DNA from: Candidatus Helarchaeota archaeon
GTDB taxonomy: Archaea; Asgardarchaeota; Lokiarchaeia; Helarchaeales; RDOG01
Assembly: GCA_029838215.1 (NCBI GenBank)
Contig: JALGVI010000088.1
Coordinates: 1-11,579 of the forward strand
Length of the DNA: 11,579 nucleotides
Reading direction: 5' to 3'
Shown here: positions 1-11,579 of the stretch, in pieces
Numbering within the stretch: the stretch's first letter is position 1
How the letters are laid out: every line of letters starts with the position of its first letter
The notes under the pieces: model-generated
What the model saw: only the letters and a program-made list of their open reading frames with translations
Database searches by the model: none
Told to the model about the DNA's origin: nothing
Translations under genes and position numbers: made by a program

Positions 1-53
1 GATATTAATCGACTTACTGAATGGGATTAATTTTTGGAAATGAAAAAATCCAT

Positions 54-59
54 GGGTGA
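54..59 (+). promoter_or_regulatory. Ribosome-binding site (GGGTGA) for the nitroreductase
   Basis: GGTGA-type Shine-Dalgarno sequence 5 nt upstream of ATG65. Confidence 0.55.
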
Positions 60-64
60 AAAAT

Positions 65-961
65 ATGGAAATTCTTGGAATAGAGCAAGAGAAGTGCATT
101 CAATGCAAGTCATGCGTGCAGGACTGTCCTGCGAAGTTGTTTCACGTCACGGGCGGCGAAGATTCAGAAGCAACGATATATTTTAATGACATTTATGGGA
201 GTTGCATAAAATGCGGTCATTGCATTGCCACGTGTCCAAAGGATGCGATTAAGTTTAAAGCACCTGACTCCCCAATGACGTGGGAAGGGATCGAAAATCC
301 CTCAAGTCTGGTTTCTTACGACACGTTACTGAATTTTTTAAGAGCACGTCGTTCGATCCGTCAATACAAGCAGGAGCCGGTTTCTGATGAAGACATTAAT
401 GCCGTTTTAGAAGCCATGAGATATGCACCGAGCGCAAGCAATGCACAGAGTTGGAGCTATATCGTGATAACCGATCCTGTAAAAAAGCAGTTACTTGTTG
501 AAGAGACAATACAGACGTTCAAATTACTGAGAAAACTTTTAAAATTGAGTTGGCTCATCAAGCCCTTTCTTTCTTCGAATTTAAAAAAGACGGTCTCCGA
601 CCCATCGACCAAGCATTCCCTTGATCGGATCTTATCGGAGTATAATGCGGGACGGGACCCTGTTTTCCATTCTGCACCGTGTGTCATTATTCTTTATTCG
701 CCAAGTTATGGACACATGGCGGGTTGCGATGCGGGACTTGCATTCATGCACGGCATGTTGGCGGCACAATCGCGCGGTCTTGGAACCTGTTGGATTGGTT
801 ATGTTCAAGAGATTCTTTATCGGAGCAAGAAGACTCGTGAGTGGCTGGGCATTCCAAAAAAACAGAAGCCTTGGGGTGTGATGACGTTGGGCCATCCCGC
901 CGTGAAATATCATCGCGTTCCGATGCGCAATGCCTTGCGCGTCACGCGATTATCGGAATGA
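65..961 (+). CDS. Nitroreductase-family flavoprotein with N-terminal 2x[4Fe-4S] ferredoxin domain (298 aa)
   Basis: Two CxxCxxCxxxCP motifs (CIQCKSCVQDCP, CIKCGHCIATCP), followed by nitroreductase signatures RRSIRQY, APSASNAQSW and GLGTCWIG. The start is moved from GTG56 to ATG65 because an RBS-like GGGTGA (54-59) lies 5 nt upstream of ATG65. Confidence 0.92.
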   Translation: MEILGIEQEKCIQCKSCVQDCPAKLFHVTGGEDSEATIYFNDIYGSCIKCGHCIATCPKDAIKFKAPDSPMTWEGIENPSSLVSYDTLLNFLRARRSIRQYKQEPVSDEDINAVLEAMRYAPSASNAQSWSYIVITDPVKKQLLVEETIQTFKLLRKLLKLSWLIKPFLSSNLKKTVSDPSTKHSLDRILSEYNAGRDPVFHSAPCVIILYSPSYGHMAGCDAGLAFMHGMLAAQSRGLGTCWIGYVQEILYRSKKTREWLGIPKKQKPWGVMTLGHPAVKYHRVPMRNALRVTRLSE

Positions 962-963
962 CC

Positions 964-1989
964 CTACCAGTATTTCTTTAGTATTTTGGCATATATTTCA
1001 GGGGGCGTGTAGGCGAGAGCCATCTTGTATCCGACTTCTGCGAAACCGAAGTCTGAACAATCCAAGTTTCGTAATGGACGAGACCACAGCATTCCAAAAA
1101 CCCTGAAGTCATCCGAGTGTTCCTTTGAAGCCCACCGATCCGAAAAGATTACCATGTTAAAGGAACGCACGCCCATTTCGTGATATCCCTTGTAGAGGCG
1201 CACGAGTCCTTCAGCCACGTTCTTCCAAGCACTCGTCCCGAGCGGCACGGATGATTTTTGATGTGAAATAAACGTGACTTCATCACGCCCTGCGAGGGGA
1301 CACCACGAAGCCATGAACGAAAATGCCGATGCTCCGTTTCCAAGCGTCCCGAGCCATCGCAACTTTGCTTTTTTCTCGGCTTGAATGTAATCGGTAAAAA
1401 AATCAGACCCGTATTCTTGCCTGTATTTGACACCAAAATGAAACGCCTGTGCCAAGATGGGTGGTGGACATTCGGGAATTGCCAGCACTTGTAAATGGGG
1501 GTGAACGATGGAAGCCGCAGCGGGACGTAAATAGTTCTGATTGATTGTCGGATACACGGAAGGATCGCTTTCAGATTGAATTTTCATGAACTCTTCGGAA
1601 AGAAGAAAGGCGTCATGTAATTGGTCGGACGTGAATTCATTAATTCGAACGGATTCCGCCTCGGTAATTCGACATACGGCGATCTTGGTCCAACCGTAAA
1701 GATTGGGAAAAAGAATTGCTTCGTTTCGATGCAAGCGTCCATAAACGGGATCCTCGGGCGTTGATTTCTTGGGATCTTTAAAAAAATGATTTCGAGGTGT
1801 TAACAATTGGTCCATGATATCTTCGGGCACGTTATAGGGTTTATAGGCAGCCCGAGCCCGAGAAATCGCTGCCCAATGCCATTTAATCAAGGGATGGAGT
1901 CTTAGCTCAACATCATATTTTTCAGGTCCTTTCAACCCCGGAGGCAAGTTCTGCGAGATGGTCCGCTTGATTGATTCATACTCGATCAT
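964..1989 (-). CDS. GalT-like (HIT superfamily) nucleotidyltransferase; substrate uncertain
   Basis: Contains the HxHxQ motif in NYLRPAAASIVHPHLQ (HPHLQ at 1489-1503), an N-terminal ELRLHPL segment and an LFPNLY segment, as in the GalT family. ATG1989 is preferred; TTG1995 is possible. No galK or galE is present in the window. Confidence 0.8.
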   Translation of the reverse strand: MIEYESIKRTISQNLPPGLKGPEKYDVELRLHPLIKWHWAAISRARAAYKPYNVPEDIMDQLLTPRNHFFKDPKKSTPEDPVYGRLHRNEAILFPNLYGWTKIAVCRITEAESVRINEFTSDQLHDAFLLSEEFMKIQSESDPSVYPTINQNYLRPAAASIVHPHLQVLAIPECPPPILAQAFHFGVKYRQEYGSDFFTDYIQAEKKAKLRWLGTLGNGASAFSFMASWCPLAGRDEVTFISHQKSSVPLGTSAWKNVAEGLVRLYKGYHEMGVRSFNMVIFSDRWASKEHSDDFRVFGMLWSRPLRNLDCSDFGFAEVGYKMALAYTPPEIYAKILKKYW

Positions 1990-2155
1990 GGTCAAAACAT
2001 CATTTTATGACTATTGGATGTTAATTTCTAACTTATTTAATAAAATTATTGTAGTTTACTGTGGATTTAGGTACACGAAAACGATTTATCAATTACCATT
2101 AGTTAGAGTAAGCAACGATTCGGGTGTTTCTTCGAATCAGGATTTGCTTCGAACG

Positions 2156-2163
2156 AAAAAAAA
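2156..2163 (-). terminator. Candidate archaeal oligo-T terminator after the HEAT gene
   Basis: T8 on the minus strand, 39 nt after the stop at 2203. Confidence 0.4.
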
Positions 2164-2202
2164 GGTGTGAATGTAATTTTTTAATGACCTGATCACTCGA
2201 TT

Positions 2203-2910
2203 TTAGAATTTTAGTCCTCTTCTTCGATTAATTCGTTTTTTCATGAAGGCGTTTGTTTTAAGGATGACGATGCCGAGCGCTATCAACCCACAAGCAATGA
2301 TGATGTCCACGATTCCCATCGTGATGTTAATGCTTCGCATGATGGGACCACCAAACATGCCGAATGAAAACATCAAACCACCTAAAACTAATGGTATTGC
2401 GGAATATATGAAAAGAATCAGGGCGATCCAGAATGACACTGTCCAAAATATTATCTGGTTTATGGTTTTATTGTGTTCGGCAATGTATATTTCAACCAAT
2501 TCTTTTTCTTGCTCAGTTAACTCCGTGTTGTCACGTAAAATTGCCATGATGTTTTTTTTGGCATCCTTGTTATCCTCTATTTTCAACTGATCACGGAGTA
2601 AAGTTATTTCATTCGGTCCGACTTGTCCTTTAAGAGACCTAATTGCCAGGATTCGAATTTTAGGATTTTCATCTCGAATGAGCTTTGGTATTCTTTCAAA
2701 AAACCCTTGTGGGTCATGCCGTTGTAGCCCTCTCGCAGCAAATAGGCGGACTTTCCAAAATTCATCATCAAGTGCTTTGATTAATGCTTGAATGCCCTCA
2801 TCGCTGTAAAACTTAAGGAAGAACTTAGCAGCCACGGTTCGTTGAGCATCGGAGCCACTTTTTATCAGGTCTAAATTTTGTTGAATTCTAGGATTTGTAG
2901 ATTCATTCAA
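2203..2910 (-). CDS. HEAT/PBS-lyase-like repeat protein with two C-terminal transmembrane helices
   Basis: About 3-4 HEAT-like units (ALIKALDDEFWKVRLFAARGL; IPKLIRDENPKIRILAIRSL), two hydrophobic stretches (IIFWTVSFWIALILFIYSAIPLVLGGLMF; ITMGIVDIIIACGLIALGIVIL) and a basic tail KKRINRRR. The start is TTG with GGGG 7 nt upstream; the first in-frame ATG is about 120 codons later. Confidence 0.8.
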   Translation of the reverse strand: MNESTNPRIQQNLDLIKSGSDAQRTVAAKFFLKFYSDEGIQALIKALDDEFWKVRLFAARGLQRHDPQGFFERIPKLIRDENPKIRILAIRSLKGQVGPNEITLLRDQLKIEDNKDAKKNIMAILRDNTELTEQEKELVEIYIAEHNKTINQIIFWTVSFWIALILFIYSAIPLVLGGLMFSFGMFGGPIMRSINITMGIVDIIIACGLIALGIVILKTNAFMKKRINRRRGLKF

Positions 2911-3070
2911 TTTTAATCCCCTTTTTGAAAAATCCTCTATAGGTTATGATGATGGAGATTTGTTTAATGAGAATAAAAAATCTTTCATTCTGAATAAACG
3001 CGATTCGGTCTTCTAAAAGATTCTGCACGTGTTGGCAATTCTTAATGGGATAGAATCGAGAACTCGGTTT

Positions 3071-3832
3071 TTATTCGTGAAAACTCACGATGTATTTTCT
3101 CGCTATTAAATTGTCAACGATCTTGAGCGTTTCCCTCGTGTTTTTATTGATTTTCTTGTGCGAAATGCTTACTAATTCGGGGAGCGTGAAGTATTCTTGC
3201 TTGTTTTTCAATGCTCTTGCAATTTTGAGTATTTCAATTTCTTCTTCGCTTAATAATGTCTGATGTTCTTCTGTTTCCATCCACAAAACGGTCATTGCTT
3301 CCATCAGTTTTTTACCAAATACGTCAAGGATAATTTTTTCGACCTGTCTAAAATCGGCGAGATGATCCATCTTGGATTCTTGTAATTCTTCAAGAAATTT
3401 ATCTTCAAAGCTTTTCACGACGATCGTCAGAGAATCTTCGAGATAATTTGATGGATTTCCATTACACAAGATGATGCCGCGAACAAATTTACCGTGGTGA
3501 ATGACGATAATTTTTTGGTCATATTCCATCTTCTTGAGCTTGGCTTTTTCACCAATGGACCTGGCCATTAGATTCACGGTTGAAATCAAGGAATGTAGAT
3601 ATGCCGTGTCGAGTTGAACTGGTTTCTGATATTTCGAGAATAATATAGTTCCGTCCGAAATCAGGGCAATTAAAATGACCAACATGTTACTGATATCATT
3701 TATTTTATTATCAAACAAATCGGGAGTCTTTGGCTGACGCTTCAAGATGTATCGAATCAAAATTATGAGGCAAATGGAAATTCCTGCCAAGATCGCTATA
3801 TCCAATCCTAAAAGTAAAAAATATTCACTCAT
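3071..3832 (-). CDS. Membrane-anchored protein: N-terminal TM helix + putative longin-like domain + putative C-terminal winged helix
   Basis: TM segment YFLLLGLDIAILAGISICLIILI followed by RYILKR. The hydrophobic pattern fits beta-beta-alpha-beta-beta-beta-alpha-alpha over about residues 48-172. The C-terminal helical domain is LSEEEIEILKIAR...YFTLPELV...LKIVDNLIARKYI. Clear paralog of 3860-4525. The CDS is well supported; the fold call is inference. Confidence 0.7.
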   Translation of the reverse strand: MSEYFLLLGLDIAILAGISICLIILIRYILKRQPKTPDLFDNKINDISNMLVILIALISDGTILFSKYQKPVQLDTAYLHSLISTVNLMARSIGEKAKLKKMEYDQKIIVIHHGKFVRGIILCNGNPSNYLEDSLTIVVKSFEDKFLEELQESKMDHLADFRQVEKIILDVFGKKLMEAMTVLWMETEEHQTLLSEEEIEILKIARALKNKQEYFTLPELVSISHKKINKNTRETLKIVDNLIARKYIVSFHE

Positions 3833-3859
3833 TTAGAAGTCCAGTCTTTTTTTTTAATT

Positions 3860-4525
3860 TCAGCATGACGTGATGAAGAAGTGCCTGTCTATTAAATCGT
3901 TTATCGCGGTTAATATCTTTAATTCTGATTTCTTGATTTTCTTTTGAACTTCGACAACCAAATTAGGAATCGTGAAATACTGCTCGGGCATTGTCCTTGC
4001 TATTCTCAGAATGTTCAATTCGAGTTTAGAAAGGTTTTCTTCATTTCCATCCCATGACAAGCATATTGGAAAAATCAAATAGGTGGAGAATGCCTCATCC
4101 AATATTTCAATCGTAGAATCAAAGATATCCAATCGACCATTCCACTCCATTAGGGTTCCGGCAAAGCGACCTTCGAATTTTTTAATAAAAACGGTTAATG
4201 CATCGAATAGAAAATTGGAGGCGGGATTATCTTTCATGACACAGACGCCTTTCACGTGTTTTCCATCATGGATCAAGACTTGATAATTCTCATATGCGAG
4301 GCGTCTTAATTTTTCACCCGTGCCAATGCGTTCTCCTACAGCAACCACGGCTTCTATCAGTCCACTGTAGGAATCGGCGAATAATTCGTGGGATGTAAAG
4401 GATTGCATGAAGAGCTTGATGCCCGATCCTTTTTGTAGCACCAGAACGTGTTCTAAATTAGTCAAGTCCTTGATCTTTTTTTGCAGGAATTTCTCCGAGA
4501 GCTTTCGATTTTTTCTTTTTCTCAT
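3860..4525 (-). CDS. Soluble paralog of 3071-3832: basic N-terminus + putative longin-like domain + putative winged helix
   Basis: Colinear similarity to the neighbour: KIKDLTNL/KINDISNM, IHDGKHVKG/IHHGKFVRG, NPASNFLFDALT/NPSNYLEDSLT, LSKLELNILRIAR/LSEEEIEILKIAR, YFTIPNLV/YFTLPELV. ATG4525 is preferred over TTG4552 because GGAG (4534-4537, minus strand) lies 8 nt upstream. No TM segment. Confidence 0.7.
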   Translation of the reverse strand: MRKRKNRKLSEKFLQKKIKDLTNLEHVLVLQKGSGIKLFMQSFTSHELFADSYSGLIEAVVAVGERIGTGEKLRRLAYENYQVLIHDGKHVKGVCVMKDNPASNFLFDALTVFIKKFEGRFAGTLMEWNGRLDIFDSTIEILDEAFSTYLIFPICLSWDGNEENLSKLELNILRIARTMPEQYFTIPNLVVEVQKKIKKSELKILTAINDLIDRHFFITSC

Positions 4526-4625
4526 GTTTCGTTCTCCAAACTTGTTTTTCAAATTCGAGTTATTTCATTCCGTGCACTTGATCAAGGATAAGCCATCACG
4601 AGTAAAATGGCTTCTATATTTGGAG

Positions 4626-4643
4626 AAAATAAAAAATAAAAAA
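4626..4643 (-). terminator. Candidate archaeal oligo-T terminator after fadD
   Basis: TTTTTTATTTTTTATTTT on the minus strand, starting 7 nt after the fadD stop. Confidence 0.55.
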
Positions 4644-4650
4644 GAGGGAA

Positions 4651-6369
4651 TTATTCTTCTTCTCGTTCGCGAAGTTTTCGGCGAAGGACTTTTCCAACAT
4701 TCGTGGTTGGAACCTCATCAATAATTTCGATGATTCTGGGCCATTTATAACCCGCAATGTTGTCCTTGCACCAATTTTGTATGTCTTCCACCGAAACTTT
4801 GCCTTTATATTCCGGTTTTAAGGAGACGAACGCCTTGATGTTTTCTTCGCCTTTCTCGTTTTTGACACCGATGACACCGACTTCGTTGATTGGCTCGTAC
4901 TGATACATTAGGTCTTCTACTTCTCGAGGATACACGCTATGTCCCTTGTATTTGATCATGTCTTTCATTCTGTCCATGATATGAAGGTATCCTTCTTCGT
5001 CAAAGTAACCGATATCTCCGGTATAAACCCAACCATCTCGCAGGTCTTTTTTCGTGGCATCAGGACGATTGTAGTAGCCGAGAAATACCTGTGGTCCTTT
5101 TATTGCGATTTCGCCATGTGTAGAAATGTCGTCTTCCTTTCCCGGTTGTGGGATTTCTTCTTTTGTTTCGGGATCCACGATCTTGCAGTCCGTATTTGGG
5201 AATGCCATTCCGACCGTTCCGATCTTGCGCTTTGCATTTTCTCCGAGGGGATTTGCAAATACAACGGGAGATGTTTCCGTAAGTCCGTAACCCTCAACAA
5301 TCCGGGCACCTGTCATTGCTTCAAACTTTTCTTGAACGTCTTTTGCGAGTGGTCCTGCACCAGAAAGTGCCGAACGAAGAGTGCTCAAATCAAATTTTTT
5401 GGCTTTGGGATGATTATTGATTCGATTAAAAAGGGCATTTACTCCTGAGAAAAGGGTGCCTTTTTCCTTTACGATGGTTTTAATTAGATCCGGGATGTCC
5501 CTTGGGTTTGGAATCAGAATGCACTTGCCACCCAGTTTTATTGCCATCATCATCATCGTTGTCAAACCGAAGATGTGCGAGAATGGCAATGCGCCAACAG
5601 TGGCTTCCTCTCCCGGTTTTGTGCCGACAATCCAAGCAGCGCATTGATATAAATTTGATACCAAATTATATTGGCTGAGCATCGCGCCTTTTGGTAGTCC
5701 TGTCGTGCCTCCTGTATACATCAGGACGGCGAGATCCTTTTTAGTGTCAAATTTTACAGGTTTTGGTTTCCCTTCTGATTGTAATAAGTCTTGAAACTTT
5801 GCATACCGCGGTCCTTCGGGCCATTTTTTCATTCGTGGAATCTTGCCTAACAAGTTTCCAAGTATTCTGATAAGGGGTTTTAAATATTCTCCCATGCCCG
5901 TCAAGATGAATTTTTCAACGGTTGGAAGTTCATCCACGATTTTTTGAACCTCTTCTTCAAAGAAAGCATCAAATATTATGAAGAATTTTGATCCCGAATC
6001 GTTAATTTGATGTCGAATTTCTGCAGCTTTTTGCAATGGCACGATTGGGGAGACGACTCCACCTGCACGCATTACTCCAAAAAAGCCGATCAAATACTGG
6101 GGCGTATTTGGCACGTTGATGGCAACGCGATCCCCTTTTTGAAGACCCATATCCTGAAGACTCTTCGCAAAGCGGTCAACCTGATCGTCTAACCATTTAT
6201 ATGTCCATGTTTGTCCTTTAAAACTCATTACAGGGAAGTCAGGGTATTTCGCAGCTGTCTCTTTAAAAATGTCATCTATCGAGATATCATCAGGAATGTC
6301 GAGATTCTTCGGAACACCTTCAGGGTAATGTTGATGCCATATCCGTTCTCCTTCAACTTTAAAAGTCAT
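4651..6369 (-). CDS. fadD: Long-chain-fatty-acid--CoA ligase (ANL/AMP-binding superfamily), 572 aa
   Basis: P-loop YTGGTTGLPKG, GYGLTETSP, TGDIGYFDEEGYLHIMDRMKDMIKYKGHSVYPREVE, the C-terminal catalytic Lys in GKVLRR, and an N-terminal W..HYPEGVP segment typical of FadD-like enzymes. Chain-length specificity is not determinable from sequence alone. Confidence 0.9.
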   Translation of the reverse strand: MTFKVEGERIWHQHYPEGVPKNLDIPDDISIDDIFKETAAKYPDFPVMSFKGQTWTYKWLDDQVDRFAKSLQDMGLQKGDRVAINVPNTPQYLIGFFGVMRAGGVVSPIVPLQKAAEIRHQINDSGSKFFIIFDAFFEEEVQKIVDELPTVEKFILTGMGEYLKPLIRILGNLLGKIPRMKKWPEGPRYAKFQDLLQSEGKPKPVKFDTKKDLAVLMYTGGTTGLPKGAMLSQYNLVSNLYQCAAWIVGTKPGEEATVGALPFSHIFGLTTMMMMAIKLGGKCILIPNPRDIPDLIKTIVKEKGTLFSGVNALFNRINNHPKAKKFDLSTLRSALSGAGPLAKDVQEKFEAMTGARIVEGYGLTETSPVVFANPLGENAKRKIGTVGMAFPNTDCKIVDPETKEEIPQPGKEDDISTHGEIAIKGPQVFLGYYNRPDATKKDLRDGWVYTGDIGYFDEEGYLHIMDRMKDMIKYKGHSVYPREVEDLMYQYEPINEVGVIGVKNEKGEENIKAFVSLKPEYKGKVSVEDIQNWCKDNIAGYKWPRIIEIIDEVPTTNVGKVLRRKLREREEE

Positions 6370-6484
6370 TATACTTTACACCATGTTTGTTTTTGATGAA
6401 TTTAGAAATAGTTTGTATTACTTCTAATTAATCCTTTGGATGTTTTAATGGCAAGAAGTTTTAATAAATCTTATGAATGTGATA

Positions 6485-6510
6485 TTTATAAAAACTCATG
6501 CTAGGTGAGG
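6485..6510 (+). promoter_or_regulatory. TATA-like box (TTTATAAA, 6485-6492) and RBS (AGGTGAGG, 6503-6510) upstream of the 93-aa gene
   Basis: Both match archaeal consensus sequences. The TATA-like box is so close to the ATG that it would imply a near-leaderless transcript; a second candidate TTTAATAAA lies at 6460-6468. The RBS is better supported than the promoter position. Confidence 0.5.
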
Positions 6511-6514
6511 ATTT

Positions 6515-6796
6515 ATGAGTTTTATTCAATTGAAATATCGATATAACTGGACCTTGGTGATTCTCTATTTCTTTTTCATAATCGTGGGCATCATGCTTTT
6601 AGCCGCAGCAGCAGTGACCTATTTCCACATACCATATCTAGCTAGTTTATCAGGGGATGTAATATCAATCCAAGCATTACTGTTATTCATGACTACGAAT
6701 GCTGGTTTCAATATTTTTCTGGGAGTCCTTTTTATCATTGTTGGAGTCATTCTTTTGATCGAGCGCATCCGTTCTCGTCGATTCCAAATTTACTAA
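6515..6796 (+). CDS. Small hypothetical membrane protein (93 aa, 2-3 TM helices)
   Basis: Hydrophobic segments WTLVILYFFFIIVGIMLLAAAAVTYF and FNIFLGVLFIIVGVILLI, with a basic tail RIRSRR. Strong RBS AGGTGAGG (6503-6510) and a T8 tract directly after the stop. It occupies otherwise empty space. Confidence 0.75.
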   Translation: MSFIQLKYRYNWTLVILYFFFIIVGIMLLAAAAVTYFHIPYLASLSGDVISIQALLLFMTTNAGFNIFLGVLFIIVGVILLIERIRSRRFQIY

Positions 6797-6804
6797 TTTT
6801 TTTT
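6797..6804 (+). terminator. Candidate oligo-T terminator after the 93-aa gene
   Basis: T8 immediately after TAA 6794-6796. Confidence 0.5.
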
Positions 6805-6820
6805 ATGACTTTTTTATGAC
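6799..6820 (+). repeat. Perfect tandem duplication of TTTTTTATGAC (2 copies)
   Basis: 6799-6809 and 6810-6820 are identical 11-mers in the intergenic spacer. Confidence 0.7.
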
Positions 6821-6824
6821 CGAT

Positions 6825-6885
6825 TTTATTTAAGCATGAAAGCCAGTTCTTTTAATAGGTACATTTTATTTGAACATGGTGGAGG
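6825..6885 (+). promoter_or_regulatory. Candidate TATA box (TTTATTTAA, 6825-6833) and RBS (GGTGGAGG, 6878-6885) for the acylase
   Basis: The order terminator-like T8, then TATA-like box, then RBS, then TTG6896 is self-consistent for an independent transcription unit. Confidence 0.45.
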
Positions 6886-6895
6886 ATTTTATAAA

Positions 6896-9589
6896 TTGGT
6901 CTCTATTTCAAAAAGATTAATAATCAAGCAGGTCGCTGCAATTGTGGGTTTGATAATAATCATTCCCGTCATGACTATTCCCATCATTGAAGGATTGCCT
7001 CCGTTCGGCACGCTTTTTAACCCGATAGGAGGGATCTGGAATGGCATGTATTATGCTGAATATCCATATTTGATGTATGTGGATGGGCAAGGTCATTCAG
7101 GAACCGTTTATCGTGACGGGTATGGAATTCCTCACATATTTTGTTCCGAAGAAACGGATCTTTCTTTCATTGTCGGCTACCTGCAAGCACATGACCGCTT
7201 ATTTTCAATGGACATGCAACGTCGCCAGATCTCGGGTTGGTTGAGCGAGATACTTGGTCCCGGAACGGATGATGCAAATATTGAAATGGACAAACTCATG
7301 CGTCTTTTTGGTTTTCGACGACTGGCAGAAGAACTCTGGCAGAAGATGCAAGCGGATGCGCCTAATGACCCTGAGTTACAAAAGCTTAACGAGAACCTCG
7401 AGGCATATGCTGCAGGCGTGAATAAGTTCATCCTAGAATGTCTTCCATACAAGCTGCCTTTTGAGTACGTGTTTCTAGGCATTCAACCGAAGACATGGGA
7501 CGTGGTCGATACGCTCACGCTCGCAAAATACATGTCGTGGGCCTTATGCTTTAATGATGTTGACCTCGATTCGACCATCATTGCCAATGCTTATAATAAG
7601 AGCGTGGCGGCAAAACTTGTTCCGGAGGTTCCATTTGAGTTTGAAGATGTCGTGATTCCGAACTTCACCCAGCCAGAAAATGAATCGGATGGAAATCCCA
7701 TCATTACAATGGGTTTTGGTCCGTCTCCTGAAACGGATCCGAAGTTTCTTGAAAATGCTGCCGCACAAGCAAGCATTGTTAAAGATGCATTTAAGAAATT
7801 GGATAATACCCTTCGCGATTTAATCCGTTTTGATTGCTCCAATAATTGGGTTGTTAACGGTTCCTTGACGGATACGGGATATCCCATTCTTTGCGGAGAT
7901 CCTCACTTAATGTTAATGGTTCCTTCTGTATGGTGGTGCATGCAGTATGTCAACACGTCCAACCCTGACGATTGCTTCTACGGCGTTTCTTTCCCGGGAA
8001 CTCCACTAATCCAGATTGGATTCACGACACATACCGCATGGTCCGCAACCGTGACTGCCGTGGACGTGACGGATTTTTACTATGAAGAGTTTTCACAGGA
8101 TAAAACGCAATATAAGTTCAATAATACATGGCGAGATGTTTACACAAAAACAGAAACCATCTCGGTGCTAGGGCGGGCTCCTGTACAATTCGAAATGCGA
8201 TACACTAAACACGATTATAACTCTACGGATGATTTTTGGTGTCCGGTCATACCATCGGATTTCACGAGCACGTTTGGAAATTTCACGGACATCAGCATGA
8301 AAAGCACCTACATGCTTGCCGATTACGGAATATTGAAAGGCTTCTATAGATTGATAAAAACAAAGAGCTACCAAGATTACATCGAAGCATTAAAACCCTA
8401 TGGATATCCCGGGCAGAACTTTGTCTTTGCAGACACGCTCGGAAACATTGCACTATTCCCAAAATCGTTCTATCCGATACGAAACGCAACGGGAACGCAA
8501 CTTGATGAAGACGGATTCAGCAGGGGTCGTTTCATAATGAATGGATCATCGGGAAATGATGAATGGACGATGTACATACCATTCGAATGGATTCCGCATA
8601 AAGTCAACCCCGATCAAATGTATTTGGTTTCTGCAAACCAACGTACTGTTAATACTTCGGAATATCCATACTATCTCGGTTATGCATTTGCTGAAGGATA
8701 TCGAGGCAATCGAATCAACATGCTGATCCGGGAAAAAATAAGCCAAGGACAAAACATCACGGTTCAGGACATGATGAATTGGCAAAAAGACGTCTATGAT
8801 GTCGCCGCATCAGTCTTCGTTCCGCAACTTCTGGATGCGGCAAACCAATATTATGGCGGTAGTTTTGGCACGACTGCAGACCTGCTCAATCAGAGTCTTG
8901 AAATATTAACGCAATGGAATCAATCGGGGACGCAACAATACAGGATGCTCAAGGAGCTCATTGCACCTACAATCTTTGACTTCTGGCTAAAAAAATACTT
9001 GAATTTGACATTCATTGACGAGTGGACTGATGCTTCCATCGTTGGCAAGGCATCATTGCCGCAGACAATGCTCCTACAGAATCTCACCCTGAACGATCCA
9101 ACATCCCATTGGTTTAACCAAACAAGCACGGCAAAGACCGAAAACGCAAGCGATATCATGTTGCTGGCATTAAACGAGACTATTGACGAACTCTCAACAG
9201 AGTATGGTGCAAGCACTGCAAGTTGGATTTGGGGCGACATTCACAAGCTGAAGATACAATATTTGCAAGGCATGTTGCCTGCGTTTGACTATCCATACTA
9301 TAGCTTTGACGGAGGCGACCGAACGGTAATGGTCGCACACGGATTGGATGTCAAACTTGGACAAAGCATGCGGCTGATTGTTGATTTCTCCCGGTTGAAA
9401 GACACTTCTGATTTAACTCCTGTGTATCATTCCGTGCCAGGAGGACAAAACGGCAATCCCGCATCGTCCCATTATAGCGATCTCTTCGAGCTATGGCGAA
9501 CTTATGAGTATTTCCAACCGCTTTTTCCGCGGACAATCACCGCAATGCCCACCAATCAGATAATTTCCACGACGAGGTTTTTAGGATGA
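6896..9589 (+). CDS. Penicillin acylase family (peptidase S45) Ntn hydrolase with N-terminal signal/anchor; secreted or surface-exposed
   Basis: Motifs RDGYGIPHIF, GYLQAHDRLFSMDMQRR, SNNWVVNG (nucleophile Ser codon at 7838-7840), GDPHL, GVSFPG, GQNFVFAD, SANQR and PGGQNGNPASSHYSD. The N-terminal hydrophobic segment follows KR. The start is moved from ATG6836 to TTG6896 because GGTGGAGG (6878-6885) lies 10 nt upstream and the signal-like segment begins there. Confidence 0.92.
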   Translation: MVSISKRLIIKQVAAIVGLIIIIPVMTIPIIEGLPPFGTLFNPIGGIWNGMYYAEYPYLMYVDGQGHSGTVYRDGYGIPHIFCSEETDLSFIVGYLQAHDRLFSMDMQRRQISGWLSEILGPGTDDANIEMDKLMRLFGFRRLAEELWQKMQADAPNDPELQKLNENLEAYAAGVNKFILECLPYKLPFEYVFLGIQPKTWDVVDTLTLAKYMSWALCFNDVDLDSTIIANAYNKSVAAKLVPEVPFEFEDVVIPNFTQPENESDGNPIITMGFGPSPETDPKFLENAAAQASIVKDAFKKLDNTLRDLIRFDCSNNWVVNGSLTDTGYPILCGDPHLMLMVPSVWWCMQYVNTSNPDDCFYGVSFPGTPLIQIGFTTHTAWSATVTAVDVTDFYYEEFSQDKTQYKFNNTWRDVYTKTETISVLGRAPVQFEMRYTKHDYNSTDDFWCPVIPSDFTSTFGNFTDISMKSTYMLADYGILKGFYRLIKTKSYQDYIEALKPYGYPGQNFVFADTLGNIALFPKSFYPIRNATGTQLDEDGFSRGRFIMNGSSGNDEWTMYIPFEWIPHKVNPDQMYLVSANQRTVNTSEYPYYLGYAFAEGYRGNRINMLIREKISQGQNITVQDMMNWQKDVYDVAASVFVPQLLDAANQYYGGSFGTTADLLNQSLEILTQWNQSGTQQYRMLKELIAPTIFDFWLKKYLNLTFIDEWTDASIVGKASLPQTMLLQNLTLNDPTSHWFNQTSTAKTENASDIMLLALNETIDELSTEYGASTASWIWGDIHKLKIQYLQGMLPAFDYPYYSFDGGDRTVMVAHGLDVKLGQSMRLIVDFSRLKDTSDLTPVYHSVPGGQNGNPASSHYSDLFELWRTYEYFQPLFPRTITAMPTNQIISTTRFLG

Positions 9590-10020
9590 GTGAGAAAAAC
9601 GAATCATTTGTCGAGTGGTTTCGTAAAGACGATTGGTACCACGTGATCGTGGGCTTTACCCTTGCCTACTTGTGGGGCGTGATCTTGGAGTTCACGGGTG
9701 CATGGTACATGATGTTCGTTGCAGGTGCAATCGGAGGCATTTTTTCAAAGGTCGGTTGGAAATCTTTTCTCGTTGGATTTCTCGGCGTGCTGCTTTCATG
9801 GCTAACCATTTTTTGGTTGCAGATGTTGAACGGCTCGTTTCTTTCTCTAATGGACGTGCTGACGAACGTCATCGGTAGCATGCTCGGTATCACGATTCCG
9901 GCGATCTCGTTCTTTATCGTGGCCCTCCTACTCGGTGGCATTCTAGGTGGTGTTGGAGCTCTCAATGGTGGATATTTAACGTCAATCATCCTACAACTGT
10001 CGAAAAAGGACGAACAATAA
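9586..10020 (+). CDS. Gly-rich hypothetical integral membrane protein (about 4 TM helices), translationally coupled to the acylase
   Basis: ATGA overlap with the acylase stop (9586-9589). Hydrophobic segments carry small-residue motifs (VAGAIGGIF; LLLGGILGGVGALNGGYL). Confidence 0.8.
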   Translation: MSEKNESFVEWFRKDDWYHVIVGFTLAYLWGVILEFTGAWYMMFVAGAIGGIFSKVGWKSFLVGFLGVLLSWLTIFWLQMLNGSFLSLMDVLTNVIGSMLGITIPAISFFIVALLLGGILGGVGALNGGYLTSIILQLSKKDEQ

Positions 10021-10033
10021 TCCAAATCCCTTA

Positions 10034-10042
10034 TTTTTTTTT
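10034..10042 (+). terminator. Candidate oligo-T terminator after the acylase/membrane-protein pair
   Basis: T9 starting 13 nt after the stop at 10020. Confidence 0.5.
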
Positions 10043-10059
10043 CTCGAGTACGATTTTAA

Positions 10060-10716
10060 ATGATGGATCTTCACGTTCATACGATATTTTCGGATGGCAC
10101 TTGCAGCATTCAGGAGGCATGCTCGGTCGCCGCAAGAAAAAACCTGACTACCATTGCAATTTCGGATCACTTCACGACGACGTGGAAAAGCTCCGCCATA
10201 ACAACGGTGACGCTCGATTCCGTAACACATTATTTAAAAGCAATTGAAATTGCGAAAATGCTCACGCCAATTAAGGTCATTCCTGCCATTGAGATAGATT
10301 GCGGCTCGAGTTGGGAAATCATCGCCAAGTTGCCATTATCGAAATTCGCACTCATCAACTTTGAATACGTCACCAGGTTAGAGCAAGTAGAAAAAATAAT
10401 CGAATTGCGTGAAAGTCTTGACCTCTCGAACACAATCTTCTCGCTTGCCCATTCCGCGATTTTCATGTATGCTTCGGAAAAGGAGCTTGATCCCATCATT
10501 TCGTGCTTGACGGAAAATGACATTGCAATGGAATTGAATTCCCGTTACGCGCACTATTTTCGGCAAGCAGAACCGATTTTTAGGCTTTTAATTGAAAAAG
10601 AAGTCAAGTTCTCGATTGGTTCGGATGCTCATTTCCCTGAAGATATTGGAAATGTCCAAGAACAATATTCATTTCTCGAGAAATTAAGCGGAAGCCACCT
10701 GCTCCTTAAATTTTAA
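10060..10716 (+). CDS. PHP-domain metal-dependent phosphoesterase (YcdX/HisJ/PolX-PHP-like)
   Basis: DLHVHT (H5, H7), SDG (D12), SDH (H37), IEID (E78), LAH (H131), MELNS and GSDAH (D189, H191). Confidence 0.9.
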   Translation: MMDLHVHTIFSDGTCSIQEACSVAARKNLTTIAISDHFTTTWKSSAITTVTLDSVTHYLKAIEIAKMLTPIKVIPAIEIDCGSSWEIIAKLPLSKFALINFEYVTRLEQVEKIIELRESLDLSNTIFSLAHSAIFMYASEKELDPIISCLTENDIAMELNSRYAHYFRQAEPIFRLLIEKEVKFSIGSDAHFPEDIGNVQEQYSFLEKLSGSHLLLKF

Positions 10717-11579
10717 TTCAATCCTATCTTTTCGATGATGTCCCTGTAATATGGGCGCTCCTTAATCTCTTTTTTCTCATCAATGGTAAGAGCAAACCAA
10801 ATCATTTCGATCATGTCCTTCATCTTGAGAACATCATCCAATGTCAAATTTTGCGTCTTCAACTCCTGCTCAAGTTTTTCCCAATTTCTTTCTTGTTTGG
10901 GAGTAGGTCGCGGTTCTTCCTTGACAACCTCGATCTCCTTCTCGGGCAGAGTTATCTTTATCTCGTATGGTTTAATCGGCTTTTTACTCGGCAACTCGGG
11001 TTCAATTTTTTTGGTTACTGAAGGCACGGGGGGAACTTCTTGTTTTGGTTCAGGTGCAGGTTTTGGTGAAGTAATTGGAACCGTTTTCACGTCTTTTTTG
11101 GGTTTTACTGGCATCTTTTCCTTCAACGAAGGCAGAGATGGTGTTTCTTCTTTAGTTTCTACGGGTGCGGGTTTTGGTAACGTGGAGATCATTATGTCGA
11201 TTGAACTGGTTTTTGCTTTTTCTTCAATCTTCTTGATCGCGTCCTTTCCTCTTGCCAATATTTCACTAAATTCATCTATTTCCTCGGAATATTCTTTAAA
11301 TTTTTTACGAATCCTTTTCCAACTCGTTTCCCATTTAGGAGCGAGCTTGTAAATGAGAACATCAAAGGCATTTCGGTCTGCTTGAATTATCTTGTTGAAA
11401 TTCAAGAAATCAATTATCTTCAAGAGATTCAAGTGATTGATATTAGAATGAATGACCAACTCTTCATCTGTAAGCCCTGCAGGAGAATTTTTCATTGTCG
11501 CAATGATTTTTTCTGCATCCCGAAGCTGTGTTTCATCTAAAACTTCAAGGAGTTCCGGGGGTTTTTCAAGGATTCCCGT
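10713..11579 (-). CDS. Hypothetical protein, 5'-truncated by the window edge; putative winged helix + helical region + Pro/Lys/Glu-rich linker + small C-terminal helical domain
   Basis: The frame stays open upstream of ATG11495 to the window edge, adding TGILEKPPELLEVLDETQLRDAEKIIAT, so ATG11495 is probably internal. The stop overlaps the PHP stop in TTAA (10713-10716). Confidence 0.75.
   Translation of the reverse strand, partial: TGILEKPPELLEVLDETQLRDAEKIIATMKNSPAGLTDEELVIHSNINHLNLLKIIDFLNFNKIIQADRNAFDVLIYKLAPKWETSWKRIRKKFKEYSEEIDEFSEILARGKDAIKKIEEKAKTSSIDIMISTLPKPAPVETKEETPSLPSLKEKMPVKPKKDVKTVPITSPKPAPEPKQEVPPVPSVTKKIEPELPSKKPIKPYEIKITLPEKEIEVVKEEPRPTPKQERNWEKLEQELKTQNLTLDDVLKMKDMIEMIWFALTIDEKKEIKERPYYRDIIEKIGLN

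Follow-up and report, generated by a model that had tools for sequence, protein, structure and literature searches.

Two Adjacent Longin and Winged-Helix Genes

We examined two adjacent genes, here called S and T, in a stretch of 11,579 nucleotides (the window) from a Candidatus Helarchaeota archaeon (GenBank assembly GCA_029838215.1, contig JALGVI010000088.1, positions 1 to 11,579). To judge from sequence, T and S are ectodomain-less, minimal and atypical members of an Asgard-wide, unannotated family. The genes were taken from their open reading frames (ORFs) and translations and the gap between them was read directly:

3860-4525, minus strand: gene S, 221 residues from ATG, longin plus winged helix
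3833-3859, minus strand: intergenic gap between S and T, 27 nucleotides, A-rich, coding strand without a T tract
3071-3832, minus strand: gene T, 253 residues, membrane-anchored longin plus winged helix

An alternative TTG start of S at 4552 would add nine residues. On its coding strand the gap reads TTAAAAAAAAAG (that is, AATTAAAAAAAAAGACTGGACTTCTAA), the longest run of T being two at most. The ORF list and the letters themselves bear out what a preliminary description of this DNA had reported, namely two adjacent, co-oriented genes 27 nucleotides apart with no coding-strand T tract between them. Its statement that the two proteins are alignable along their full length holds as well: BLASTP aligns T with S at 31% identity over 227 columns (E 4e-29), and the alignment spans both proteins. 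A scan for bacterial-type promoters and terminators returned counts equal to those of shuffled sequences, its models being bacterial and not applicable to archaea.

Fold of the Two Proteins

AlphaFold2 models were built from alignments of S with 87 relatives (A2) and of T with 80 relatives (A4). The model of S has a predicted local distance difference test score (pLDDT) of 88.8 and a predicted template modelling score (pTM) of 0.81; for residues 30-253 of T the values are 88.5 and 0.82. Both begin with a juxtamembrane helix, continue as strand-strand-helix-strand-strand-strand-helix-helix and end in a three-helix domain that closes with a short hairpin. In S the DSSP assignment (E, strand; H, helix) runs E24-31, E37-42, H50-67, E75-78, E81-87, E91-97, H105-120, H122-126 and H138-146, and the order in T is identical. 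The models thus repeat the longin topology that had been predicted from the letters alone, with the addition of the juxtamembrane helix before strand 1. The domains are placed as follows:

4076-4456, minus strand: longin domain of S, residues about 24-150 (AlphaFold2 topology and structural matches)
3863-4048, minus strand: winged helix of S, residues about 160-221 (three helices and a short wing in the model)
3305-3685, minus strand: longin domain of T, residues about 50-176 (AlphaFold2 topology and structural matches)
3074-3265, minus strand: winged helix of T, residues about 190-253 (structural match of the model)

When the models were searched against longin and roadblock folds, as had been proposed, longin was the best match (Z 10.8-12.7). 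For S, an exhaustive search of 48,161 PDB representatives with VIA-align found Fuzzy (Z 12.4), Sec22 (11.5), VAMP7 (11.4) and the TRAPP core chain 3cue_A (11.3), each match covering some 125 residues. A second pass, in which the Foldseek list was re-scored, gave Trs23 (2j3t_D; Z 12.7, 120 residues, root-mean-square deviation (rmsd) 2.5), Fuzzy (9rs8_A; 12.6), Sec22b (1ifq_B; 12.4) and VAMP7 (4afi_A; 11.6), with 120-125 residues aligned for the top matches. T matched VAMP7 (4afi_B) at Z 11.1, and AP2 mu (2xa7_M), TRAPP (3cue_C) and Fuzzy (7q3d_C) at 10.8 each. The longin matches of both proteins span the whole domain (112-126 residues). Towards the C-terminus, residues 150-221 of S match the winged-helix peptide-recognition element of TbtB (6ec8_A; Z 8.3, rmsd 1.8, 72 residues), and residues 145-224 of the T model match the winged helices of TbtB (Z 9.2) and MibB (Z 8.3). 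TbtB and MibB are lanthipeptide dehydratases, in which these winged helices bind peptides. The models support an assignment of S and T as a predicted longin fold followed by a C-terminal winged helix; together with the juxtamembrane helix, this unit is called the module below. In eukaryotes the longin fold serves in the docking of small GTPases.

Sequence profiles gave neither protein a Pfam family at E<=0.1 or an NCBIfam match, and a profile search of PDB sequences returned nothing significant (best E 0.23). A lenient Pfam scan of 88 module sequences matched 34 families, and among the 25 listed there was no longin family; those of Pfam are Longin, Sybindin, Sedlin_N, Fuz_longin_1 and Intu_longin_1. 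GSH-S_ATP recurred in 27 of the 88 (best E 0.007) and was rejected as an identity for the module, being probably a local motif; Robl_LC7 was matched by two of the 88 at E 0.004. One paralogue in the window's genome matches Intu_longin_1 at E 0.0085, below the cutoff.

An Asgard Family of Membrane-Anchored Tails

Used as the query in an exhaustive phmmer search of 1.84 billion representative proteins, S retrieved 565 representatives at E<=1e-3, of which 167 also reach E<=1e-10, and almost all align across the complete module. The alignments cover residues 3-218 or thereabouts of the query, and in most matches this stretch sits deep inside proteins of 500-3000 residues. By a hydropathy scan, 136 of the 167 family occurrences of the module come immediately after a membrane helix, and many family proteins have a signal-peptide-like N-terminus with 500-2400 residues before the membrane helix; given these two features, the long intervening part should be extracellular. 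A typical family member would thus consist of a signal peptide, a big ectodomain, one membrane helix and a cytoplasmic tail of about 210 residues that holds the juxtamembrane helix, the longin domain and the winged helix. No large ectodomain is present in T, where at most seven residues precede the helix, or in S, where there are none. Against the module profile S scores 247 bits and T 199 bits, and the two resemble the family modules at 25-33% identity overall (E down to 1e-23; 25-30% for ectodomain-bearing modules). The nearest structure clusters in the ESM Atlas are hypothetical proteins of Promethearchaeota (template modelling score 0.74-0.79, residues 1-221). The best-conserved part of the family is the central helix and third strand of the longin domain, the region of the predicted dimer interface.

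Of the 150 best representatives, roughly one in three has an extra C-terminal tail of about 200 or about 400 residues. A second module copy was considered for the shorter tail and rejected (hhalign probability 0.1%). It looks TPR/MIT-like, with weak matches to TPR_2 in 24 and to MIT in 21 of 35 members, and an MIT-like tail might be a possible link to interactions of the ESCRT type. Many of the giant members P0019-P0111 (alignment A3) end in a conserved tail of about 200 residues, in some doubled to about 400.

The window's genome (G000, 94% complete) holds 56 six-frame ORFs that match the module profile, mostly via the longin part, and at least four giant full-module ORFs: C130 (1375 residues), C1 (1695), C157 (1487) and C141 (1964). 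A module match at E<=1e-20 occurs in 30 of 41 class-level relatives, nearly always in a giant ORF. That longin and roadblock domains have multiplied in Asgard archaea is documented (PMC10933270; PMC4917890; bioRxiv 10.1101/2020.10.19.343400), with 130 longin/roadblock orthologous groups counted (bioRxiv 10.1101/2020.10.19.343400), and multidomain longin, HTH/PCI, TPR and Ig-like proteins have been reported with Vps28-C and ESCRT contexts (PMC11188069). A full-text literature search of incomplete coverage found no description of a membrane-anchored longin plus winged-helix family.

The Membrane Helix of T and Its Loss in S

The anchor of T lies at the very start of the protein:

3752-3820, minus strand: membrane helix of T, residues about 5-27, followed by a basic juxtamembrane stretch (Kyte-Doolittle, 19-residue window, 2.71)

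Only T has such an N-terminal transmembrane helix, with almost nothing beyond the membrane, as had been noticed at the outset. Since the N-terminus is so short and the basic stretch RYILKRQPK comes after the helix, the C-terminal bulk of T should be cytoplasmic.

S in the window has no membrane helix, and its reading frame is closed upstream by a TGA at 4567-4565, which leaves no room for a longer N-terminus. Most S orthologues, on the other hand (P0006, P0007, P0009, P0010, P0018 and L015), have an N-terminal membrane helix of their own. A gene-calling artefact does explain the missing helix of P0005, where an upstream ATG restores it; for window S and for P0004 this explanation was ruled out by in-frame stops. 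Because these two fall in different S subclades, two losses of the anchor are probable, and because the P0004 genome retains S at its Pus10 site (see below), the loss is not tied to adjacency with T. On sequence grounds, then, the soluble state of window S is a secondary, lineage-specific loss and not the design of the system. The preliminary description had taken one anchored and one soluble protein to be that design, a view that does not survive the finding that S orthologues and the single copy of a sister family are anchored. The contrast between an anchored T and a soluble S is compatible with S being held at the membrane by a partner.

Evolutionary History of the Pair

In a quick maximum-likelihood IQ-TREE analysis with support from the Shimodaira-Hasegawa-like approximate likelihood-ratio test (SH-aLRT), a clade made up of S, T and a single sequence on a long branch is set off from 73 ectodomain-bearing modules (SH-aLRT 98). 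The stem of T is long, at 1.44 substitutions per site versus 0.42 for S. Across several assemblies S orthologues show 61-67% identity and T orthologues 57-60%, and since each set recurs in several assemblies the duplication is old. A recent, species-specific duplication, which had been named as the case that would speak against a functional pair, can be set aside: the paralogues are old, their orthologues occur in several assemblies, and they lie side by side in three. Just one S-like copy, anchored and 251-252 residues long, occurs in the sister family (G003 and G005, both 82% complete); in G005 it adjoins Pus10, L21e and RpoF.

Gene order differs among the assemblies. In a Lokiarchaeota metagenome-assembled genome (MAG), S is flanked by Pus10 and KsgA; T lies on a different contig, where its neighbours are a metallophosphatase gene and a RimK-type ATP-grasp gene. 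The same separate contexts recur in a Helarchaeota MAG, in another MAG and on separate ENA contigs. In related genomes the S-type gene lies inside an information-processing block of DUF655, RpoF/Rpb4, L21e, Pus10, S, KsgA/RrnaAD and a methyltransferase (S-type gene at L009 6001-6744, L011 6001-6702, L013 1483-2235 and L015 3825-4499), which are odd surroundings for a membrane-anchored longin protein.

S and T adjoin each other only in the window, on the Logan contig L012 and on a 2.1-kb ENA contig (about 60% identity). In the tree, P0006/P0007 join window S (SH-aLRT 96) and P0016/P0017 join window T (99), and these come from precisely the assemblies with an adjacent pair; because the adjacent-pair sequences group with the window copies in both subtrees, adjacency is a derived state of one subclade. 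On L012 the pair is flanked by a 277-residue longin-like protein on one side and ScpA/ScpB on the other, and three genes off lies an Arf-like GTPase of 392 residues; the L012 coordinates of the block are 202-1035 and 5514-6692. In the window's genome the orthologues of all L012 flanking genes, the Arf-like GTPase included, are on contig C51 (21500-27274), away from the pair. That S might still sit at its ancestral locus in this genome was considered and rejected, as the Pus10-KsgA gap on contig C89 holds an unrelated ORF of 389 residues. Since the flanks differ between the two genomes, S and T were apparently brought together later and have remained neighbours despite at least one relocation, and such persistence is moderate evidence for functional coupling.

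Predicted Pairing of T and S

Residues 30-253 of T and the whole of S were modelled as a complex with their alignments in three runs, and scored by ipSAE (interaction prediction score from aligned errors) against controls. The complex obtained 0.63 (runs 0.66, 0.63 and 0.59) and the best control 0.00; in calibration, the ipSAE mark is reached by 58 of 80 solved complexes and by 2 of 110 mismatched pairs. The runs have at least 49% of their contacts in common, and the pLDDT of the partners is at least 77. Confident contacts join the central helices and the antiparallel third strands (residues 70-76 of the T chain with 72-78 of S), which delimits the predicted interface (T in residue numbering, that is, chain numbering plus 29):

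4277-4369, minus strand: predicted dimer interface of S, residues 53-83, central helix and third strand (complex model)
3506-3619, minus strand: predicted dimer interface of T, residues 72-109, central helix and third strand (complex model)

A heterodimer with a helix-helix and continuous-sheet interface, as the preliminary description had envisaged, is thus predicted above all controls. In these models T and S can form a canonical roadblock/longin dimer, whether or not each prefers the other to itself.

Interpretation and Alternatives

We regard it as somewhat probable that the ectodomain-less T and S pair via their longin domains as a membrane-side docking platform. According to the complex model the two domains would meet through their central helices and third strands, yielding a continuous ten-stranded sheet a few residues beneath the membrane, and in the window's genome S would reach the membrane only via T or another anchored family member. 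The winged helices would be protein-binding and not DNA-binding modules. More speculatively, the dimer may be where a cytoplasmic partner docks; to go by the analogy of TRAPP, Mon1-Ccz1, Fuzzy-Inturned and Ragulator, a small GTPase is the strongest candidate. In terms of its origin, the pair is a minimal ectodomain-less variant of the Asgard surface-tail family and not a new kind of system.

Several observations weigh against a T-S platform. As a linked module, which is how the paralogues had first been described, the pair stands in the three assemblies where it is adjacent and fails in at least four others, where S and T are unlinked. The single copy of the sister family, of pre-duplication type, must work without T. 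Solved structures include many longin and roadblock dimers, and the scoring also lets through close cousins of true partners; the homodimers S-S and T-T may therefore reach the same score. The A-rich gap could itself be an archaeal TATA-like element and hence a putative separate promoter for T. As to a GTPase partner, Pfam scans of the 11.6-kb contig turned up no GTPase gene, and those of 10 paralogues that carry the module in the window's genome no GTPase domain.

The best-surviving alternative, which we nevertheless hold to be rather unlikely, is that S and T form independent homodimers serving different processes, S as the conserved "housekeeping" copy and T as a fast-evolving duplicate, their adjacency being incidental. 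The sister family's lone S-like copy, which must act alone, speaks for it, as do the separate placements of S (Pus10/KsgA) and T (metallophosphatase/RimK-type ATP-grasp) in several assemblies, the long T stem, which suggests a changed function, and the solved Asgard roadblock/longin domains, which are homodimeric by their PDB titles (9jue, 9jq8 and 8yqg). It accounts less readily for a heterodimer model well above its controls, for a pair kept adjacent in three assemblies at about 60% identity despite unlike flanks, and for the double loss of the S anchor, which is easier to tolerate if a partner holds S at the membrane.

The docking-platform reading has a narrower version, in which T-S would be a self-anchored minimal longin platform that docks an Asgard small GTPase at the cell membrane, which would make it an archaeal equivalent, encoded by two genes, of Ragulator or of the longin cores of TRAPP and Mon1-Ccz1. 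We judge it unlikely as it stands. The role of GTPase regulator put forward in the preliminary description is without direct support: the contig has no GTPase gene, the 10 paralogues have no GTPase domain, and the Arf-like GTPase of L012 is unlinked in the window's genome.

Decidedly unlikely, in our assessment, is that T and S pair instead with the longin tails of the giant surface proteins (C130, C1, C157 and C141), modulating or bridging them as partners or decoys. The same genome does encode at least four full-module giants among its 56 module-profile ORFs, and the dimer-interface region is what the family conserves best; yet S and T form a clade of their own apart from the 73 ectodomain-bearing modules, share only 25-30% identity with the modules of the giants, and have no giant family member beside them on the contig.

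The winged helix has a mean net charge of +1.6 across 88 family members (+1 in S and 0 in T), and conservation reaches 90% only at buried hydrophobic positions (L189 and L211); low charge and conservation confined to the core argue against a conserved DNA-binding role for this predicted domain. A membrane-tethered transcription factor, with T as a one-component regulator that binds DNA through its winged helix and detects a ligand or partner through its longin domain, and S as the soluble equivalent, is accordingly highly improbable, for although both proteins end in a winged-helix fold and longin belongs to a wider sensor-like fold class (PMC4917890), the charge and conservation just given, the peptide-binding winged helices of lanthipeptide dehydratases as nearest structures, and the fixing of the giants' module to the membrane, often followed by a TPR-like tail, all count against it.

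Other Genes in the Window

Around the pair, the contig encodes a HEAT-repeat membrane protein and a GalT/HIT-like protein, as well as an acyl-CoA ligase, a penicillin-amidase-family protein and others. Three genes of the window stand out:

2203-2910, minus strand: 235-residue protein with N-terminal HEAT repeats (HEAT_2, E 1.5e-10), 160 nucleotides downstream of T
964-1995, minus strand: 343-residue protein with only a weak DUF4921 match (E 0.028)
10713-11495, minus strand: 260-residue protein without a family match

The C-terminal third of the HEAT protein is hydrophobic and resembles two membrane helices; its gene does not adjoin the pair in L012, so the linkage is not conserved. The HPHLQVL motif of the 343-residue protein recalls nucleotidyltransferases of the HIT/GalT type. 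The 260-residue protein has a long middle part rich in Pro, Lys and Glu, with only weak Pfam matches of the coiled-coil type.

Significance

Asgard genomes encode dozens of longin and roadblock domains and about 100 small GTPases. To our knowledge, almost none of these domains or GTPases has a known partner. The module described here ties longin directly to the membrane and, in the giants, to the cell surface, an arrangement that could plausibly relay signals from outside the cell to GTPase switches like those of eukaryotes. At about 220-250 residues, and with no glycosylated ectodomain, T and S are the smallest members found here and the easiest to express, crystallise and use as bait. Knowing what they bind would assign a role to a family that has no annotation and numbers several hundred sequence clusters, and would also test whether membrane longin heterodimers predate eukaryotes. 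If T and S do form a platform that docks a small GTPase, they would offer a tractable entry point to the signalling of the surface-protein/longin-tail family; if they form only inert homodimers, they are one more uncharacterised pair of Asgard longin paralogues.

Comparison with Known Systems

The longin heterodimers that act on Rab GTPases (Bet5-Trs23, Fuzzy-Inturned/CPLANE, Mon1-Ccz1 and HPS1-HPS4/BLOC-3) have the longin fold in common with T and S, and S matches Trs23 at Z 12.7, Fuzzy at 12.6, BLOC-3 at 11.0 and Mon1-Ccz1 at about 10.7. In these eukaryotic complexes two paralogues lie side by side, as is predicted for T-S; unlike them, T and S have no sequence-family match, and carry an attached winged helix and, in T, a membrane helix. 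Roadblock/LC7 proteins (MglB, LAMTOR2/3 and the Asgard homodimers 9jue, 9jq8, 7f8m and 7yh1) share the five-stranded core and central helix, and the predicted T-S dimer uses the same central helix and edge strand. Their chains match S and T at Z 9-10.9 over about 100-106 residues, limited to residues 18-127, and the two C-terminal helices of S and T are arranged as in longin, not as in roadblock, although a helix precedes strand 1 as in roadblock. Ragulator is membrane-tethered, as T-S would be, but through the lipidated LAMTOR1 and not through a membrane helix of its own.

NPRL2/NPRL3 of GATOR1, and the NPRL2-like longin families of Asgard archaea (bioRxiv 10.1101/2020.10.19.343400), likewise combine an N-terminal longin domain with a C-terminal domain and pair as paralogues. 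In structure there is one weak Foldseek match, to GATOR1 chain 9o5a_C (E 5.8e-4, TM-score by query 0.36); none is among the VIA-align top 50 for S or T, and T and S have no intervening region of the TINI type. The SRX domain of SRP receptor alpha is longin-like too (Z 9.7-10.5; 5ck3_A, 6frk_y and 2go5_1) and works at the membrane side with an Arf-family GTPase. There the anchor is on the GTPase, SR-beta, whereas here it is on the longin protein T; the homology is limited to the fold, and T and S have no link to SRP genes.

Homology over the full module of about 210 residues is found with the Asgard tails themselves, in which ectodomain, membrane helix, longin and winged helix follow one another and which are absent from Pfam and NCBIfam. 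Unlike the giants, T and S have neither an ectodomain nor a TPR-like C-terminal tail, S in the window has no anchor, and the two form a separate clade. In the surface-protein tails, however, the module comes directly after the membrane helix, as it does in T and in most S orthologues, and the motifs of the longin central helix and third strand are common to both.

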